This document shows positions 52,026 through 60,249 of a stretch of DNA of 64,000 bases, piece after piece. Made by a program: the position numbers and the translations under genes. Source of the stretch: an uncultured Methanosarcinales archaeon (lineage in GTDB: Archaea; Nanobdellota; Nanobdellia; Woesearchaeales; GW2011-AR9); the NCBI GenBank assembly GCA_964552945.1, contig CAZKIP010000002.1, forward strand, positions 136,990 to 200,989, written 5' to 3'. The notes beneath the pieces are model-generated. The model saw only the letters and a list, made by a program, of their open reading frames with translations. It was not told the DNA's origin and searched no databases. Position 1 is the first letter of the stretch, and every line of letters begins with the position of its first letter.

Positions 52026-52376
52026 ATGGTAAATCCACAATTTATATCAGAAGAACACTTATCCCTTGCCGACGTAAAGGTACTTATAAAAAAGATCCAA
52101 AAAAGGGACGAAGAAGTTAATTATAGGACAAATAAAGCTAATGATTTTCTGGATAATCTTGACGTAATTCTATCACAAAGTAAAAAAGATGAACTTACAA
52201 AAAAATTGCTTGATTTAAACCTAACCAGGCTTAAAGAAGAGCATATTATGAAAATAACCGATTTTCTACCCACAACTACCAACGATTTGAAGATTGTTCT
52301 TCAAGCATACCCCTTAAGTATGCCTAAAAAAGATCAAGAAAGCATCGTTAAGGTTGTTAAAGAGTTTAAAACGTAA
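52026..52376 (+). CDS. rpo4: DNA-directed RNA polymerase subunit Rpo4 (F)
   Basis: LSLADVK ... KITDFLP...DLK; conserved rpl21e-rpoF-DUF655 gene order. Confidence 0.85.
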   Translation: MVNPQFISEEHLSLADVKVLIKKIQKRDEEVNYRTNKANDFLDNLDVILSQSKKDELTKKLLDLNLTRLKEEHIMKITDFLPTTTNDLKIVLQAYPLSMPKKDQESIVKVVKEFKT

Positions 52377-52431
52377 CTTTTTTCTTTTAAAAAGCGCAAT
52401 TTTTATTAACTTAGCCTACTTTACAAAAAAA

Positions 52432-52998
52432 ATGACACAAGAACCACAAGAGAATGTACTTAGAGAAGAACAAGCAGTTGTACTAGATTTTCTTCCACAC
52501 GGATATTCTTCGGATCAAGGTAGTCTAAAAAGTCCAATTGCTCAAGCTATTGGAGTAAATCATCTTACTTTACTGGAACTTATCCCTAAAAAAGAGATTC
52601 ATTTACGCCCTCAACAAGAAGTTTATATTGGTGAAGGGAAAAGGGATGAAATTCATCATATTAAAGGTAAAATTAGTTCTGAAAGGTTAACTTCAACTGC
52701 AGAGAAAGAGCTAATTCATGCTATTACTAAGATAGTTGAAAAGAATGAAACTAAATTCATCGCATTTTTCAATAAAGCTCAGCCTTTAAGTATGAGAATG
52801 CATCAATTAGAGTTACTTCCAGGATTAGGTAAAAAACATATGTGGGAGATTCTCAACGAAAGAAAAGGTAAGCCTTTCGAAAGTTTTGAGGATTTAAAGA
52901 ATAGAGTAAAATTAATCCCAGATCCTAGTTTAGTTGTAGTAAAAAGAATTATGGCCGAGCTTCTTAAGAATGAAAAGTATAAAATCTTTGTAGGATGA
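52432..52998 (+). CDS. DUF655 putative RNA-binding protein
   Basis: VLDFLPHG, AQAIG, VYIGEGKR, RMHQLELLPGLGKK. Confidence 0.93.
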   Translation: MTQEPQENVLREEQAVVLDFLPHGYSSDQGSLKSPIAQAIGVNHLTLLELIPKKEIHLRPQQEVYIGEGKRDEIHHIKGKISSERLTSTAEKELIHAITKIVEKNETKFIAFFNKAQPLSMRMHQLELLPGLGKKHMWEILNERKGKPFESFEDLKNRVKLIPDPSLVVVKRIMAELLKNEKYKIFVG

Positions 52999-53000
52999 AG

Positions 53001-53696
53001 CTAATATAGCCTTTGCCTCACTTCTAAATAAGGAGATGCATCTAATGCAGCTGTTAGTTCTATGTAAGGTTTTACTCCATGATCCATTAAAATTGCATCA
53101 ACTTCTTTAGACCATGCTCTTCCATTTTTTAAGGCAATTATAGCCCCATTTTTTAACATCCTCATATTTTGGGGGTGCAAATCTGCAATATCTTTCAAAG
53201 CAACAACTTCTCCCAATATCCCTCTGACATCCACCATTGCATTGTCCCTACTTCTATCAACAATTAGGGCATGTAATTTGTCAGCTTCACAATTTACAAG
53301 AATTTCTTCCAATTCCTTCCTTGTTCTTAAATTTGGAGCCCTTCTTAAAATGGTTGAGCGTTCAGTTTCGGTAAGAGATTGTAAAGTGTAATTATCTATG
53401 TGCCTGTAAACAACTACCACATCAGGTCTATGTTCAACATTATCAGGAATAGAGTCACATTCTGGTCTGTAATGCACCATAAATCTATAGATCCTTGGAA
53501 TTCCTTTTTGTTGAACTTCCCATACTTTTTGCAGCATGGATCTTCCATCCATTAATTGTTTTCTTTTTTTTCCAGGACTACAACCTACTTCAACCAAGCC
53601 AAAGTATAATTCCTCACCATCATGGAAAAATGGAACACTAATACGTTGGGCTGGTGGTGTTCCTTTAGCAGAAGGAAATACGAAGTCAATACCCAT
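53001..53696 (-). CDS. hypothetical protein, possible degenerate PD-(D/E)XK C-terminal domain
   Basis: GILGEVVA ... EVDAIL ... YIEL. Confidence 0.55.
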   Translation of the reverse strand: MGIDFVFPSAKGTPPAQRISVPFFHDGEELYFGLVEVGCSPGKKRKQLMDGRSMLQKVWEVQQKGIPRIYRFMVHYRPECDSIPDNVEHRPDVVVVYRHIDNYTLQSLTETERSTILRRAPNLRTRKELEEILVNCEADKLHALIVDRSRDNAMVDVRGILGEVVALKDIADLHPQNMRMLKNGAIIALKNGRAWSKEVDAILMDHGVKPYIELTAALDASPYLEVRQRLY

Positions 53697-53760
53697 ATCC
53701 AGAATAATAATAAAGCACTTATATAGATTATTGTAATAAAAAAGAGTTTGTCTTAATCTG

Positions 53761-53822
53761 AATTTGTAAATTCTCCATTATTATCGGAAATATTTTTAAA
53801 ATTGTTATCCTTTAGTGATTAA
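53761..53822 (+). promoter_or_regulatory. 62-bp duplicated promoter, copy 1
   Basis: 61/62 identical to 55289-55350; contains the BRE/TATA-like CGGAAATATTTTTAAA. Confidence 0.85.
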
Positions 53823-53836
53823 TATAGGGTTAAAAA

Positions 53837-55159
53837 ATGAAAATAGAAGATAAAGTAGATGAAGAAAAACCAACAGTCTATATCACCAAATCACAAATGG
53901 AAGATATCAGAGAAGCTCTTTACAAATCATTGTTAGATGAAGATGAGTCTACATTAATAAGAGATAGAAATGCAAAAAATGTTGAAAATTTACGTGAAGA
54001 ATTGGATGATTTATCTGATGCAACAATTATCAGTGATGAAGAGATGTATTTGAGAAGAAATGGCATACACTCAATATATTTGACTGCATACACTGGAATA
54101 GAAATACACAATCCCTATTCACAAGACACACACTTGTATGGTAATGACGGACTCCATAGAATTGTTTGGCTTCACACTTATTTAGATTGTTCACCCAAAA
54201 GGTGGAATAATTATAGTCCAAATTTGACTACAGAACAAAAAGTCACGCTTATAGAATTAGGCATATATCCAGAAAACACAACTATAGAAAAGCAAGAGAC
54301 ATATGCTTCTTTAGTTGAATTATTAAATGCTGTAGAAATTGATCTTGGACTAGAAATGTCATTGTTACCATACATAGATGAAAGATTTTTTGACGAAAAA
54401 ATAGATGGACGTAAAAGACATGTTCTCATTGGGGAAGGGTGCCAAGGAATTGTTGTTCAGTTTCAAGGGTTTACCTTTAAATTGTCAACAGATGCAAAAA
54501 GAGAAATTGAAATTCTAAAAAAAATTAATGATGATATACAATGCAAATATGTTGTAAATATTGGTGGCACTATTACAGAAGAAACAATCGTTTTAAATGA
54601 AGGAGTAATTTTATTAGAATACATAAAAGGAGATTCGTTAGGCCAAATTGTTGATAATGATGGAATATTACCATCAGAAAAAGTATTAAAATATGGTGCT
54701 GACATATGTAATGGACTTCTTGAAATGAGAGAAAGTGGTTACTATCACACTGACCTTCACATAAACAATGTTATGATAGACCAAGAAAACGACAGAGCAG
54801 TAATAATTGATTTGGGTAGTGCTACTGATGACCCCTTAAAAATTAACCCACTGAATAGAGCTTATGGTACAAACGATTTAATTGCTCTAGGATTAATTAT
54901 GTATAAAGCAGCTACTGGGACTAATTTATTTAATATCAGTGAAGAAGAAACATTATTGTCAAGAGTAAAATGGGAAACTAAATCTGAAAGAGAAAGAACT
55001 TATGAAAATTTAACTTTGAAAAGTGAAATGTTGCGTAAAGTAAGAGAGAAAATAAATAATAAATCATTAGCTGAAGTAATTGTAAATTTACTTAATCAGG
55101 AACTCAATAAGCAACCAAGTTACTCAGAAGTTGAGGAAGCTTTTTTTGGTAATAAGTAG
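53837..55159 (+). CDS. Hanks-type Ser/Thr protein kinase with an unknown N-terminal domain
   Basis: IGEGCQG, FK, helix C Glu, LEYIKG, HTDLHINN, IDLG, DLIALG. Confidence 0.88.
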   Translation: MKIEDKVDEEKPTVYITKSQMEDIREALYKSLLDEDESTLIRDRNAKNVENLREELDDLSDATIISDEEMYLRRNGIHSIYLTAYTGIEIHNPYSQDTHLYGNDGLHRIVWLHTYLDCSPKRWNNYSPNLTTEQKVTLIELGIYPENTTIEKQETYASLVELLNAVEIDLGLEMSLLPYIDERFFDEKIDGRKRHVLIGEGCQGIVVQFQGFTFKLSTDAKREIEILKKINDDIQCKYVVNIGGTITEETIVLNEGVILLEYIKGDSLGQIVDNDGILPSEKVLKYGADICNGLLEMRESGYYHTDLHINNVMIDQENDRAVIIDLGSATDDPLKINPLNRAYGTNDLIALGLIMYKAATGTNLFNISEEETLLSRVKWETKSERERTYENLTLKSEMLRKVREKINNKSLAEVIVNLLNQELNKQPSYSEVEEAFFGNK

Positions 55160-55288
55160 ACATTAATTTCAATAGCAATTGATGATGATTAGGTTAAAAA
55201 TAAATAAAAATAATTCACAGAAATTATATAAGATATATTTAATAGTTTGTAAATTTATAATTAACATTTAATTAAAGCTAATCATTTA

Positions 55289-55350
55289 AATTTGTAAATT
55301 CTCCATTATTATCGGAAATCTTTTTAAAATTGTTATCCTTTAGTGATTAA
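55289..55350 (+). promoter_or_regulatory. 62-bp duplicated promoter, copy 2 (abuts the ATG, probably leaderless)
   Basis: 61/62 identical to 53761-53822. Confidence 0.85.
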
Positions 55351-58300
55351 ATGTCTCTAGAATCCACATTAACAGCAGAGGTTAGAAAATCTGTAATTGA
55401 AGGTATTGAAAGATATAGAAGAGAAACAACAATTATAAAATTGTTTGAACAAGCAAATGATTCAAATGTTGATGAAGTTACAGATGAACTTAAACAAGTA
55501 GTTGAATCACTTACTTCTTTGAATTCACCTGATTTAAAAGAGATTTACCAAATTGGATTCAGGACAAGTAAATTTTGTACTAAATTCAAATCAATGATAG
55601 CTTTACATGCCATTGGTGAATTAGAAGATTCAATTGTTTTGGAGGAATTTGAAAAAGTATTATTCGCTCGTGTAAATCATTCAGTTGGTGATACCAAAAA
55701 AAATTTGGTTTCCCAATATCTAGGTGTTGTTGCAAAAATAGATGAAGCAAAATTTGAACAATTCTACAATTGGAATATGTATGGACATGCTTACCTTGAT
55801 CAAATAAAAAGAAACACTTCAAATCAGTTGCCAGCATTGGCAGAAATAAACCCAATGAAATTTTCAGATTTAGCCATCAAATCTATTTTATTTCGTGGAC
55901 ATGTAGTTAAACAAGCTTCCTTATCAAATTTAAATGACCTCCTTAGGGTTAATCAGGGCGGTTATTTAGCTGCCATGAAATTCATCCTTGATGACACAGT
56001 AATTAACAATCAGTTTGAAGTTACAAATTCTTTAGAAAATTTATCTGAAATTAACCCTACTGAATTCAGAAGAATTGTTAATGAACAAGTTCTATTATAC
56101 TTAGAAGGTAAAAGTCCAAAATTAACTGTTGCCAGAAATTTAGATACTTTTGCAAAACTTTTCCCAAGTGATATTGCTGAGCATTTAAAAGTATTTTTTG
56201 AGAATGAGTTAATGACTAGTAAAAGTCGTCATTTTAATTATCCTGAAGAGATATTAATTGGACATTTAGGTGTTGTAGTAAATGAAAATAAAGAATTATT
56301 CTCTCAATTTTGTAAAAAAGGAATAACCTATGCTCCAGATACCGAGGTGTTTGAAGAAACAGTAAGAAATTTACATTTATTATTGGATTCTGATCCTGAA
56401 TTGTATGTGAAAATATTAAATGATGCACTAAAAGAAAAAAATGATTCTTTAATAAATCCAATGGCAAAATCATTTGACCAATTTATTTTAAAAAACAAAG
56501 AAGAATTTGTGAAATTTTATGAAAGGTATTTCAACATTAATTCAAGAATGATTGATGAAGGAGTAACTGAACAAATTCACCATTTAGCGAAAATTAATCC
56601 TGAAAAATATGTTGAAATTTTTTGGAATAATTTAAACAAGAAATTATACGTTTTAAAACTTGGAACTGCAAAATCATTAGGAGGGTTGGCTAAAGCAGAT
56701 CCAAAAAGATATGTAGAAGTATTTGAAAAAATTCTTGCCTCAAGAAGAAATCATGAAGTAAAGGATGAAGTTTTTGGAACACTTGATTCTTTGGTAGAAG
56801 AAGACACAGAAGAATTTCTTAGGTTGTTTGAAAAATCAATTGATTTCAAATTATATTTAGTAAACTGTCTTCCAAGTGTTGCAAGAAAAGATATTGGTTT
56901 GTTCTTGAAACATGTAGAGTATTTTGTTGATTATTTTGAGTATCAATCAGAGTTGGAAATTGAATCTTTTTTTGAGGCTTTAGATGTTATGTCTGATAAT
57001 GAACCAGTTAAATTTATTGAAACATGTAGAAATTTAATGGAAAGGTCTGAAAATTATGATGATTATATAAGAAAAAATTTAGAAAAAATTTCCCGCATCA
57101 GCATAGAGGACTACAAGAAGATGTTTATGAAATTGATTGAATCAAAAGATAAATTTCAGACAGGAAAAGTTTTTGAATCTATATCATTTTTGCCTCAATA
57201 CGACCTTGATCTATTTGAAGAATTATTTATAAAAGGTATTAATCATTCTAATCACAGAGTAAGATTTAAAACTGCAGAAACTTTAGATAAAGTTATAGCA
57301 GTTTCTCCAAAAAAATACTTAGAATTATATGGAGTAGCCATAGCAAACAATGACAATCATGTAAAAAGAGTAGTAACCAAATCATTAGAGGATTTTGCTT
57401 TAACTTTGACTGAAGAAAAAATTACTCCCTTAAAAGATAAAGCTAACAAATTTTCTAGAGATTACTTATCTTCTCCTTGCGCTGAAAGAGATGTTAAAAG
57501 ATTAGGTTTAAATTACGTAAAAGATAAATTAAAAGATATAGCAATTTCTGATAAATCTAATTTTGATAGGATGCAAAGTGTATTAAATAAAAATCCAGAA
57601 GGAATTGATGAAATCATTGAATGTAGCAGAATAAAAGTAAAGGATTACAGGATAATCAAAAAAGCTGGAAGGGGAACCATAAAAAAAGCATATAGGGCCG
57701 TAAGTTCCCATTCTGAAAGGGAAACTGTTTTCCTAATGATTGAGCCAAATTCTAGAGGATTTTCCAGACAGAAGAAAGTACATGGTGAAAATTTAAATGA
57801 TAAAGAAATAATGGAAAAAATTCTAGAAGCAGAATTTTCAAGTGGAGACTTACTTGACTTAACTGATAGAAGATACATCGCCTTAATTCATGGAATTCAC
57901 ACTGGAACTGATGACAAAGGAGAACCAGTTTATTTTCTCAAATCAGACCCATATGAAAGGACATTAGAAGAGATAGAAGGCGAAATTAAAATTGAAATTT
58001 CAGCCAAGTATGCATACCAAATGGCTTTAGCTTTAAATAATTGTCACCAAGAAGGAATTGTTCACAAAGATTTGAAACCAGGAAATATTGGAATTGATAA
58101 AAAAGGAGACATCAAATTATCAGATTTTGGATGCGCCACACAATTCAGTGTTTCCTCTAATGACTTATATCGATATCCTTTACTTTTAAGTCCACCTGAA
58201 ATGGCAACAGACAAACCAACTGAAGCAACTCCAGAGGCAAATACCTGGTCATTTGGAGCAATAATATATCAATTGATAATGGGTGAGCCCCTTATTGAAC

Positions 58301-58623
58301 TCAAATATCAAAGAACTGAATTAGGAACTGCAGAACATATAAAACAGAAAAAAGATGCATTTGCAAAAATAAAAGATTCTGAATATATAGAAAAAAGAAT
58401 TGATGAAATGAACCAAAAATTTGGAGATTCAGTTCTCAAATATAATAGAATGGAAAGTGAACTGAGGTCTGGCGTAATATTTAAAAATGAAATTGACCAA
58501 ACGGAATATAATCAATTGAAAGCCATTGCCATTTGTTATATTGTTATTAGAAGTTCCCTTAATCAAGATCCTAAAAAAAGAAAATTAGAAAGAACATTAA
58601 AAAGTATTGAATCTAAAATATAG
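55351..58623 (+). CDS. HEAT/ARM-like repeat protein with a C-terminal Ser/Thr kinase domain
   Basis: Repeated LxxLAxINPxxY/F helical units over about 700 aa; GRGTIK, HKDLKPGN, DFG, PPE, WSFG. Confidence 0.9.
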   Translation: MSLESTLTAEVRKSVIEGIERYRRETTIIKLFEQANDSNVDEVTDELKQVVESLTSLNSPDLKEIYQIGFRTSKFCTKFKSMIALHAIGELEDSIVLEEFEKVLFARVNHSVGDTKKNLVSQYLGVVAKIDEAKFEQFYNWNMYGHAYLDQIKRNTSNQLPALAEINPMKFSDLAIKSILFRGHVVKQASLSNLNDLLRVNQGGYLAAMKFILDDTVINNQFEVTNSLENLSEINPTEFRRIVNEQVLLYLEGKSPKLTVARNLDTFAKLFPSDIAEHLKVFFENELMTSKSRHFNYPEEILIGHLGVVVNENKELFSQFCKKGITYAPDTEVFEETVRNLHLLLDSDPELYVKILNDALKEKNDSLINPMAKSFDQFILKNKEEFVKFYERYFNINSRMIDEGVTEQIHHLAKINPEKYVEIFWNNLNKKLYVLKLGTAKSLGGLAKADPKRYVEVFEKILASRRNHEVKDEVFGTLDSLVEEDTEEFLRLFEKSIDFKLYLVNCLPSVARKDIGLFLKHVEYFVDYFEYQSELEIESFFEALDVMSDNEPVKFIETCRNLMERSENYDDYIRKNLEKISRISIEDYKKMFMKLIESKDKFQTGKVFESISFLPQYDLDLFEELFIKGINHSNHRVRFKTAETLDKVIAVSPKKYLELYGVAIANNDNHVKRVVTKSLEDFALTLTEEKITPLKDKANKFSRDYLSSPCAERDVKRLGLNYVKDKLKDIAISDKSNFDRMQSVLNKNPEGIDEIIECSRIKVKDYRIIKKAGRGTIKKAYRAVSSHSERETVFLMIEPNSRGFSRQKKVHGENLNDKEIMEKILEAEFSSGDLLDLTDRRYIALIHGIHTGTDDKGEPVYFLKSDPYERTLEEIEGEIKIEISAKYAYQMALALNNCHQEGIVHKDLKPGNIGIDKKGDIKLSDFGCATQFSVSSNDLYRYPLLLSPPEMATDKPTEATPEANTWSFGAIIYQLIMGEPLIELKYQRTELGTAEHIKQKKDAFAKIKDSEYIEKRIDEMNQKFGDSVLKYNRMESELRSGVIFKNEIDQTEYNQLKAIAICYIVIRSSLNQDPKKRKLERTLKSIESKI

Positions 58624-58640
58624 TGAAGATAATTTTAATA

Positions 58641-59564
58641 CTAAATCCTCCTAACGATAATCGCTCTACTGAAATCATTCAATGTATCAAGTAATGGCTT
58701 CGCCTCTGAAATAACTGCAAACTCTTCGTGTTTCCATTTACTATTGTTAACTTTATTAACTAAAGCATATCTTTTGTGTACTAATTCCTTGGTAATTTTT
58801 CCTTTATGTAAAGCAGTAAACTGTTCATAGATTAAATTAAATATTTCTTCAAGTGAATCGATTACTTTTTTTGTAGCACCATATTCCTCAACCATTTCAC
58901 TAATATGTCTAAATTTATCAATCATCTTATCAACAATCATATACAAAGTAAACAAAAGTTGTTTCTCATAATTGCTTCTACTTGACTGATCAAGAATTCT
59001 TAGATAATAAATAATAAATTTGATTATTGCATCATGATATTCATACCTATTATCATGAAAATCATTTGTGTTGTTACGCAAACTAATTAACAATTCATCA
59101 GCCATATCCTTAAATAAATAATAAATTCTTTTCCCTATCTTGTCCAAATCTTTTTCATCACCGCTAATAAAACAATGTAACTCTGTCATATTTTTTGTTT
59201 GTGATACAATTTCCATACCTATAAGACGACTCACATGCCAAGTTACAATTGTTTTCAAATTTTTAGTTTTTATACCTTTATGAAATGGAATTTCCGATTT
59301 AGAATAAGTTAAAATAATTTTATTATAATTTGTTATATATAATGTTTCTAAATGTCTAAACAACAAGTAATCATCTAAATCATCAATATTCAAAGTGATT
59401 TCTTTATCATCATTATTTTTTGGACCTAAAGAGAAACAGATTTCATTATTAAATAATGAAGTTTCCAATTCATCACCAACTTTAACGCCTGCCTTCTTAA
59501 CCCAACCAGAAGGTAAACTAACAGTTAAGGTATTGGTACCAACTCGATTAATTTTTCTTTTCAT
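58641..59564 (-). CDS. AbrB-PhoU type archaeal phosphate-uptake regulator family protein
   Basis: MKRKINRVGTNTLTVSLPSGWVK ... GDEL, IGMEIV. Confidence 0.85.
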   Translation of the reverse strand: MKRKINRVGTNTLTVSLPSGWVKKAGVKVGDELETSLFNNEICFSLGPKNNDDKEITLNIDDLDDYLLFRHLETLYITNYNKIILTYSKSEIPFHKGIKTKNLKTIVTWHVSRLIGMEIVSQTKNMTELHCFISGDEKDLDKIGKRIYYLFKDMADELLISLRNNTNDFHDNRYEYHDAIIKFIIYYLRILDQSSRSNYEKQLLFTLYMIVDKMIDKFRHISEMVEEYGATKKVIDSLEEIFNLIYEQFTALHKGKITKELVHKRYALVNKVNNSKWKHEEFAVISEAKPLLDTLNDFSRAIIVRRI

Positions 59565-59805: not shown

Positions 59806-60249
59806 ATGAATCAAAAACAATACAAATTGCTTGGACATCTTCGGAAAAATTCCAGAGAGAAGCTTACAACCATAAGTAAAAAAACAAATATCCCCATCTC
59901 TACTCTATTCGATACTCTGAAAGAGATTCAAGGATCTTTGATATCAAAAAGTACCATCCTTCTAAATTATGAAAACCTAGGTTACCATGCCAGAGCAAAA
60001 GTATTCCTTAAAGTTGACAAGGAAGATAAAGAGAGATTGTGTAAACGTCTGCAATTTAGCAATAATGTTAATTCCATTTACAAAATTAACAACAATTGGA
60101 ATTTCATAGTTGAAACAGTTCATAAAAATGTGAAAGAACTAGATCAATTCCTAGAACAATTGCAATCAGACTTCAAAATAGAGGATAAACAAATCCACTA
60201 TTTAATTGAAGACATTAAGAGAGAGGGTTTTGAAGTCACCCCGACCTAA
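59806..60249 (+). CDS. Lrp/AsnC family regulator
   Basis: LRKNSREKLTTISKKTNIPISTLFD HTH, LGY, VNSIYKIN. Confidence 0.9.
   Translation: MNQKQYKLLGHLRKNSREKLTTISKKTNIPISTLFDTLKEIQGSLISKSTILLNYENLGYHARAKVFLKVDKEDKERLCKRLQFSNNVNSIYKINNNWNFIVETVHKNVKELDQFLEQLQSDFKIEDKQIHYLIEDIKREGFEVTPT

Follow-up and report, generated by a model that had tools for sequence, protein, structure and literature searches.

Loss of the lysine in strand β3 is one of three rules by which a protein kinase is called dead (PMC12599244), and the with-no-lysine (WNK) kinases have been described as the only functional eukaryotic protein kinase (ePK) family that lacks it (PMC1821047). Relocation of this lysine is itself already known, from WNK, POMK (SgK196) and CAK-chloro. 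In the latter two, positive charge has moved from β3 to the Gly loop or β2, and a lysine at the Gly-loop position considered here is catalytic in WNK and POMK (PMC1821047, PMC10211241). We have analysed a gene from a small-genome archaeon of the Woesearchaeales lineage that shows a comparable arrangement. The window, a stretch of 64,000 nucleotides (contig CAZKIP010000002.1, positions 136,990 to 200,989), carries on its forward strand a single open frame (55351..58623) encoding a 1090-residue protein, P0001, in which a long helical solenoid is followed by a Hanks-type kinase domain (residues 766-1090; 57646..58620). In the literature listings and abstract openings covered, mostly of open-access papers, no archaeal family with a relocated lysine and no natural two-lysine intermediates were described. 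We propose, with moderate confidence, that P0001 is a soluble solenoid-kinase in which Lys778 replaces the β3 lysine in anchoring the ATP phosphates, that it would be active, and that its WNK geometry was reached independently through an ancestor carrying both lysines.

Lys778 is confirmed as a WNK-style moved lysine in a domain that has no β3 lysine. The Gly loop reads A772-G-R-G-T-I-K778-K-A-Y (Gly773 to Lys778 at 57667..57684), with Lys778 (57682-57684) at the position of PKA G55 and WNK1 K233, while strand β3 reads E791-T-V-F-L795-M-I-E-P (Glu791 to Ile797 at 57721..57741), with Leu795 (57733-57735) where the canonical VAIK lysine would stand. HMMER alignment of the family N-lobe with MARK4, PLK4 and CDK1 was gap-free, and set Lys778 on the third-Gly position and Leu795 on the VAIK lysine. 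In an AlphaFold2 model of residues 760-1090 (29-row alignment; predicted local distance difference test score, pLDDT, 91.1; predicted template modelling score, pTM, 0.89), built ATP-free like the full-length model, Lys778 opens β2, Leu795 lies within β3, and Glu828 (57832..57834) stands at the end of the αC helix, following an additional helix (802-811) between β3 and αC. An earlier sequence-only reading of this DNA had proposed the WNK-type placement, which is borne out by the HMMER register, by conservation across the family and by the structure model. Its statement that the HKDLKPGN (residues 905-912; 58063..58086), DFG (925-927; 58123..58131) and PPE (948-950) motifs are intact also agrees with the translation. 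Two more changes that are invariant in the family had escaped the reading. One is Pro943, which stands where the P+1 loop (Y942-P943-L-L-L-S-P-P-E950; 58174..58200) would have the GT threonine, and the other is Asn964 (58240..58242), which replaces the subdomain IX aspartate (PKA D220). A frameshift or sequencing artefact is ruled out by the one unbroken frame and by the same pattern in 28 relatives. A substitute N-lobe lysine in the style of ULK4 was likewise rejected, as lysine occurs at residue 779 in 14/27 rows, at 796 in 2/27 and at 802 in 18/27, and only Lys778 is invariant.

The family within which these positions were scored comprises 29 proteins, selected by score and motif inspection from 150 listed (representatives at 50% identity) and leaving out the high-scoring multi-kinase proteins P0015, P0033 and P0035-P0037. 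Two of its rows are cut short, hence the denominators of 27 or 28 at N-lobe positions. Members are 31-48% identical to P0001, and every one has a Pfam Pkinase domain (84.8 bits in P0001 against a cut-off of 31.7). Only 20 of 224 alignment columns are invariant. Five of these are in the N-lobe (G775, K778, L795, P799 and E828), with Lys778 (27/27) and Leu795 (27/27) beside the αC glutamate (28/28), and Lys778 is the sole basic residue among them. H905, D907, N912, DFG, Y940, P943, P949, E950, N964 and G969 are unchanged in 29/29, Lys909, the Lys168 equivalent, is kept in 27/29, and HKD is found in 27/29 with HRD in the remaining two. Three canonical Ser/Thr-kinase features are missing (the β3 lysine, here Leu795; GT, here Y/C/H-Pro; and the subdomain IX aspartate, here Asn964), and judged by its motifs the domain is a Hanks-type variant and not the canonical Ser/Thr form. 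Outside the family, a lysine at the third-Gly position was seen in one of 144 Gly-loop matches in the first protein set, that one being a two-lysine relative, and in 3/151 other kinase domains after a second search. The family shares its fold, and its best sequence matches, with bacterial PknB/StkP-type and eukaryotic Aurora/MARK/CDK kinases; the fold search returned tied Z scores of 20-22 against ePKs, over about 250 residues at a root-mean-square deviation (rmsd) of roughly 3 Å, with one match at Z 22.4 (rmsd 3.4, 251 aligned). Unlike the family, these kinases have the β3 lysine, GT or GS and D220, and the family differs from them further in its additional β3-αC helix. Searching the PDB with the N-lobe as a single sequence gave weak CK2 matches and noise.

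How this geometry arose can be addressed through relatives that have lysine at both the Gly loop and β3, namely P0099, P0139, P0156-P0159, two kinases of locus L005 and one of L017. These archaeal solenoid kinases resemble the family in their Gly-loop lysine, solenoid and gene cassette, and most also share a DExxECS-type pre-kinase helix and the asparagine at D220, a residue common to the family (29/29) and to a six-member two-lysine clade. An xP motif past β3 is also shared by P0099, P0139, P0156-P0159 and the L005 proteins, and P0001 aligns with one of the latter (L005:5940-9227) over 1030 columns (23%, E 3e-42). They differ from the family in keeping the β3 lysine, in mostly having asparagine at the GT position and in mostly having valine at the PKA V57 position (6/7 rows), which is alanine (residue 780) in 26/27 family rows. 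Locus L005 (297-14259) consists of five large tandem kinase genes, of which two encode both lysines, one is of Ser55/Lys72 type and two have HLD catalytic loops. Two trees were built after deleting the two trait columns (Gly-loop lysine and β3 lysine), and neither contained a WNK sequence. The quick tree (70 rows, 28 of them from the family) gave the family a support of 99. The more careful tree, which was rooted on P0033, took in 46 rows, including 14 of those 28, and 268 columns; in it the family received 100/100 and six two-lysine rows 100/98, and both fall within a 22-row archaeal clade (98/88) that also holds a seventh two-lysine row and one Ser55/Lys72 kinase, with a Gly55/Lys72 row basal to it (99/93). 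Given that two-lysine archaeal relatives exist, with the family placed among them, two steps likely led to the WNK geometry. The simplest reading has the Gly-loop position changing from Gly/Ser to lysine first and the β3 lysine giving way to leucine second, an inferred order that depends on the root and on some long branches. The sequence-only reading had left "convergent or related" side by side; the former is favoured over WNK kinship, since the family lies within a group of archaeal kinases with the β3 lysine and shares their solenoid, and the geometry was likely reached separately from WNK, by way of an ancestor that carried the two lysines together.

A comparable swap appears in bacteria. 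P0256 (named Chloroflexota), P0261 and P0263, a trio defined after one member had appeared in the first tree, have a GxGxxK Gly loop and, in place of the β3 lysine, alanine where the archaeal family has leucine; unlike that family they retain HRD, GT and D220. They also carry an AAA_16 domain, with TPR in two of them. The trio nests within a bacterial PknB-like clade (96/87), and the approximately unbiased (AU) test rejected one common origin for it and the archaeal family (p-AU 1.1e-4), so that, on these phylogenetic grounds, the bacterial Gly-loop-Lys kinases are an independent WNK-type origin.

We predict that the kinase domain of P0001 is active, and hold this to be rather likely, because all catalytic residues are kept in a diverse family, the moved lysine is catalytic in WNK and POMK, and PKA with the corresponding double change is active, with G55K restoring the K72A mutant to ~400% activity (PMC5130182). 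The family keeps the standard ePK catalytic set, whereas POMK has lost HRD, DFG and the αC glutamate and phosphorylates O-mannose, and CAK-chloro has Arg55, Met72 and Phe91. In the mechanism we envisage, Lys778 would reach in from β2, hold the α and β phosphates and pair with Glu828, while Asp907, Lys909, Asn912 and Asp925 would carry out catalysis and bind Mg. The change from valine to alanine at residue 780 may make room for the bulky Leu795, and so could offset it.

The remainder of P0001 (residues ~9-760; 55375..57630) is predicted to be an all-helical, HEAT-like α-solenoid with a helical linker. The full-length AlphaFold2 model (12-row alignment; pLDDT 69, pTM 0.48) is helical throughout residues 9-760, the solenoid matches those of the Pfam-HEAT-bearing proteins P0156-P0158 (E 4e-21 to 3e-19), and the nearest ESM Atlas clusters of the N-terminal region are HEAT (score 0.91, a weak match). 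The fold search with the full-length model listed matches to the kinase domain alone, self-BLAST found no internal repeats, and the one Pfam indication, HEAT_2 at residues 626-696, fell below threshold (17.7 against 27.7 bits). For the ~750 helical residues the term HEAT-like, used in the sequence-only reading, is therefore fair, whereas HEAT in the strict sense is at most a candidate label. Elsewhere in the family the N-terminal regions differ, being HEAT-like, TPR, a Walker-A-bearing domain (P0007) or unnamed domains. Because the family has HKD and no GT motif, binding of a partner or substrate by the solenoid is a more probable switch for the kinase than activation-loop phosphorylation.

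The genes around P0001 suggest a setting for such a protein. Window neighbours read, from their translations, as archaeal housekeeping-type genes. The cassette has two conserved flanks: a DUF655 gene on the left (52354..52998, forward strand) and an Lrp/AsnC-type regulator on the right (59806..60249, forward), which are 78% and 68% identical, respectively, in G441, a genome of the same genus. Between them lie a 231-residue frame with no Pfam match (53001-53696, reverse), a 440-residue kinase of another family that keeps its β3 lysine and has HTD and DLG motifs (53837..55159, forward), P0001, and a 307-residue AbrB/MazE-domain regulator (58641..59564, reverse) convergent with it. Such a regulator lies tail to tail with the kinase, within two genes, in 5/7 family loci, duplicates being counted once (the window, L001, L004, L020 and L021, as opposed to L002 and L003), and in both two-lysine loci that could be scored (L005 and L103; the sequence of L105 ends too soon). 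In G441 the same conserved flanks enclose a 1001-residue protein of TPR and APH-like domains and a HAD hydrolase, with an AbrB protein only 26% identical to that of the window, and from this comparison cargo and regulator are swapped together. Across the loci compared (window 53001-59564, L126 at G441:C16:8000-18500, L005, L103, L106, L107 and L116), AbrB/MazE regulators have at their 3' end a slot for interchangeable kinase-fold cargo from unrelated families, ePK or APH-like, in many cases joined to TPR or HEAT-like solenoids. In L116 a regulator pair, AbrB and Lrp, stands opposite a kinase similar to the upstream one at 53837-55159, and at L114:1139-5086 five related frames with an LEPRIESSLLY-type N-terminal start, one of which was scanned and had no Pfam match, sit beside an AbrB regulator. 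P0001 may thus be one of several sensor-kinase modules that replace one another in a cassette of fast turnover, and its role would most likely be in conflict inside the cell, such as sensing of virus, host contact or stress. Described defence systems (MADS, PD-T4-6, BREX PglW and Stk2) were considered and rejected, with NCBIfam scores of 51 against 460 bits for MAD6 and 18 against 990 for PglW.

The family is small, patchy and rare, and belongs to the Woesearchaeota where its members are named (Candidatus Woesearchaeota for P0003 and loci L001-L003, as for the two-lysine relatives P0099 and L005). At E < 1e-120 it was found in three of 401 genomes of the order, the window's own genome included and one genome having three copies, with two-lysine types in two further genomes of the 401. 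A phylum sample yielded 2/401 genomes, again including its own; in the window's own taxonomic family the search for absence or presence returned 0/41 genomes, and no close paralogue of P0001 was found in its own genome. A metagenome scan added at least one family locus among the 79 loci listed. The 1424-residue kinase of L004 has a long insertion behind its PPE motif, and the same protein was found in a genome of the window's order. A viral origin was rejected on the absence of any family-level match in the viral contigs searched (best E 2e-8).

Several points weigh against the reading we favour. Leu795 is bulky, comparable to the methionine of PKA K72M, where WNK has cysteine and the bacterial Gly-loop-Lys kinases alanine, and K72M with G55K had 1.84% activity (K72H with G55K, 2.5%; PMC5130182); nor does the family have the GT threonine, and at D220 it has asparagine. 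In the careful tree the family and the six two-lysine rows are joined at only 87/78, and the seventh two-lysine row (L017) is a long branch outside that group. As to the cassette, five genomes searched contain 2 to 13 AbrB/MazE-type matches each, and among control AbrB loci (21 read and 20 scored, L111 being left out as its gene was missed by the gene caller) an ePK adjoins the regulator in 2/20 and an APH-like gene in a third. The association is then not specific to the family and, as control loci also have kinases alongside, the AbrB slot attracts kinases in general. All NCBIfam matches were below cut-off, the PADLOC matches were generic, fell on the kinase domain only and left the AbrB neighbour without a match, and the conflict role for an interchangeable solenoid-sensor and kinase-output module, though it fits, has gene context as its basis.

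The low activity of the PKA K72M double mutant, together with the lost GT threonine and D220, is what lends weight to a pseudokinase or a very slow kinase, in which Lys778 would aid nucleotide binding, Leu795 would clamp the Gly loop, and the protein would serve neighbouring kinases as a switch, either allosteric or as a scaffold. Tandem arrangement with other kinase genes is frequent (the window, L001, L005 and L103), as such a role would have it, but no second kinase was found beside the genes of L002, L003 and L020 in the DNA seen, and the HxD aspartate, asparagine, DFG and αC glutamate are kept family-wide, with the Lys168 equivalent in 27/29. We consider this alternative unlikely, though it deserves to be kept in mind.

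Much the same standing can be given to an active kinase of different specificity, one for tyrosine, for both kinds of residue or for a non-protein acceptor. Pro943 aligns gap-free with the threonine of the Aurora A GT and the serine of the MARK3 GS, and tyrosine kinases usually have proline at this place, contacting the substrate tyrosine (PMC3513839, PMC4718614), while POMK, another kinase with a Gly-loop lysine, phosphorylates a sugar (PMC10211241). The proline is present in 29/29 family members (each of the 28 that entered the tree set reads Y/C/H-P), where GT or GS occurs in 26/28 scored outgroup rows. The catalytic loop speaks for Ser/Thr specificity. Tyrosine kinases have loops of the AAR or RAA type, lacking the Lys168 equivalent, and that loss was not seen here; the family keeps the Ser/Thr-type LKPxN, with the lysine in 27/29, and P0001 scores higher with Pfam Pkinase than with PK_Tyr_Ser-Thr (43.9 bits). 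The threonine was, moreover, already lost in relatives, with asparagine in 5/7 two-lysine rows, so the proline could have come by drift once the motif had decayed. An unrelated kinase in the same genome also reads GP at this position. A tyrosine, dual-specificity or non-protein substrate is, on balance, improbable. We would be more doubtful still of the bolder combination, in which an archaeal lineage keeps the full route to a WNK-type site (Gly/Ser with the β3 lysine, then both lysines, then Gly-loop lysine with β3 leucine) and ends in an active archaeal kinase of Hanks fold that has also acquired the P+1 proline of tyrosine kinases, acts on tyrosine or with dual specificity, and works as a solenoid-gated conflict module.

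The sequence-only reading had also raised a host-directed effector, which would be exported, dock through its solenoid on a protein of a microbial host and modify that protein with its kinase. A host-dependent lifestyle is ascribed to Woesearchaeota, and the patchiness of the cassette, its fast turnover and the variety of N-terminal domains would be in keeping with such a role. An "LE" near the N-terminus (residues 2-8) was found in 16/31 family and two-lysine proteins against 51/1255 frames of the genome, and such a start also occurs in the unrelated G441 cargo. The count is inflated by kinship of the family members, and over all frames of this genome "LE" is no commoner at N-termini (51) than in an internal window (50), on which ground a genome-wide export tag was rejected. 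That the start (window 55351-55380 and the family N-termini) spans unrelated N-terminal domains could mark a targeting tag, if weakly. P0001 itself contains no signal or membrane segment (maximum hydropathy 1.05), and no secretion genes stand among the cassette neighbours in the loci read. We think an exported effector doubtful, and less probable than either of the two alternatives above.

The family invites comparison with WNK because, like WNK, it has lysine at the PKA G55 position (WNK1 K233), lacks the β3 lysine, and keeps the αC glutamate and the catalytic aspartate and asparagine; moreover, in WNK the vacated β3 site is thought to allow chloride binding (PMC7606576). It differs in having leucine at β3 (27/27), where WNK has cysteine (PMC12599244), in reading HKD (27/29) where WNK has the HRD arginine, R348 in WNK1 (PMC1821047), and in its proline at the GT position, its place C-terminal to a 750-residue solenoid and its nesting among archaeal kinases. 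WNK1 binds its chloride at Gly370 and Leu371, Leu369 being part of the site, and the L369F mutant does not respond to chloride (PMC7606576). Chloride sensing is unlikely here because the family has the phenylalanine of DFG (29/29) at that very position, and the ion-sensitive kinase suggested by the sequence-only reading is not supported. Three PDB sequence searches (best 60 matches) and two fold searches (best 50) listed no WNK, which is weak evidence as the Z scores are tied. A true WNK relative or chloride-sensing kinase is thus very improbable, given this pocket, the β3 leucine, the HKD and the nesting of the family among archaeal kinases with the β3 lysine. A motif scan of viral contigs for WNK returned one locus, L100, which is not a kinase; several of its short frames, lying on either strand, share one W-R-R-V-A-type tail, which suggests invertible or swappable tail-fibre ends.

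Taken at the strength given here, relocation of the catalytic lysine occurred in archaea too, apart from its bacterial origin. Since it is found in both archaea and bacteria, counts of prokaryotic pseudokinases that are based on motifs are likely too high. The family uncouples relocation of the lysine from the sensing of chloride, and its invariant proline of tyrosine-kinase type raises the question of tyrosine phosphorylation in archaea. With two-lysine relatives living alongside it, the migration of a catalytic residue without a dead intermediate becomes directly testable.

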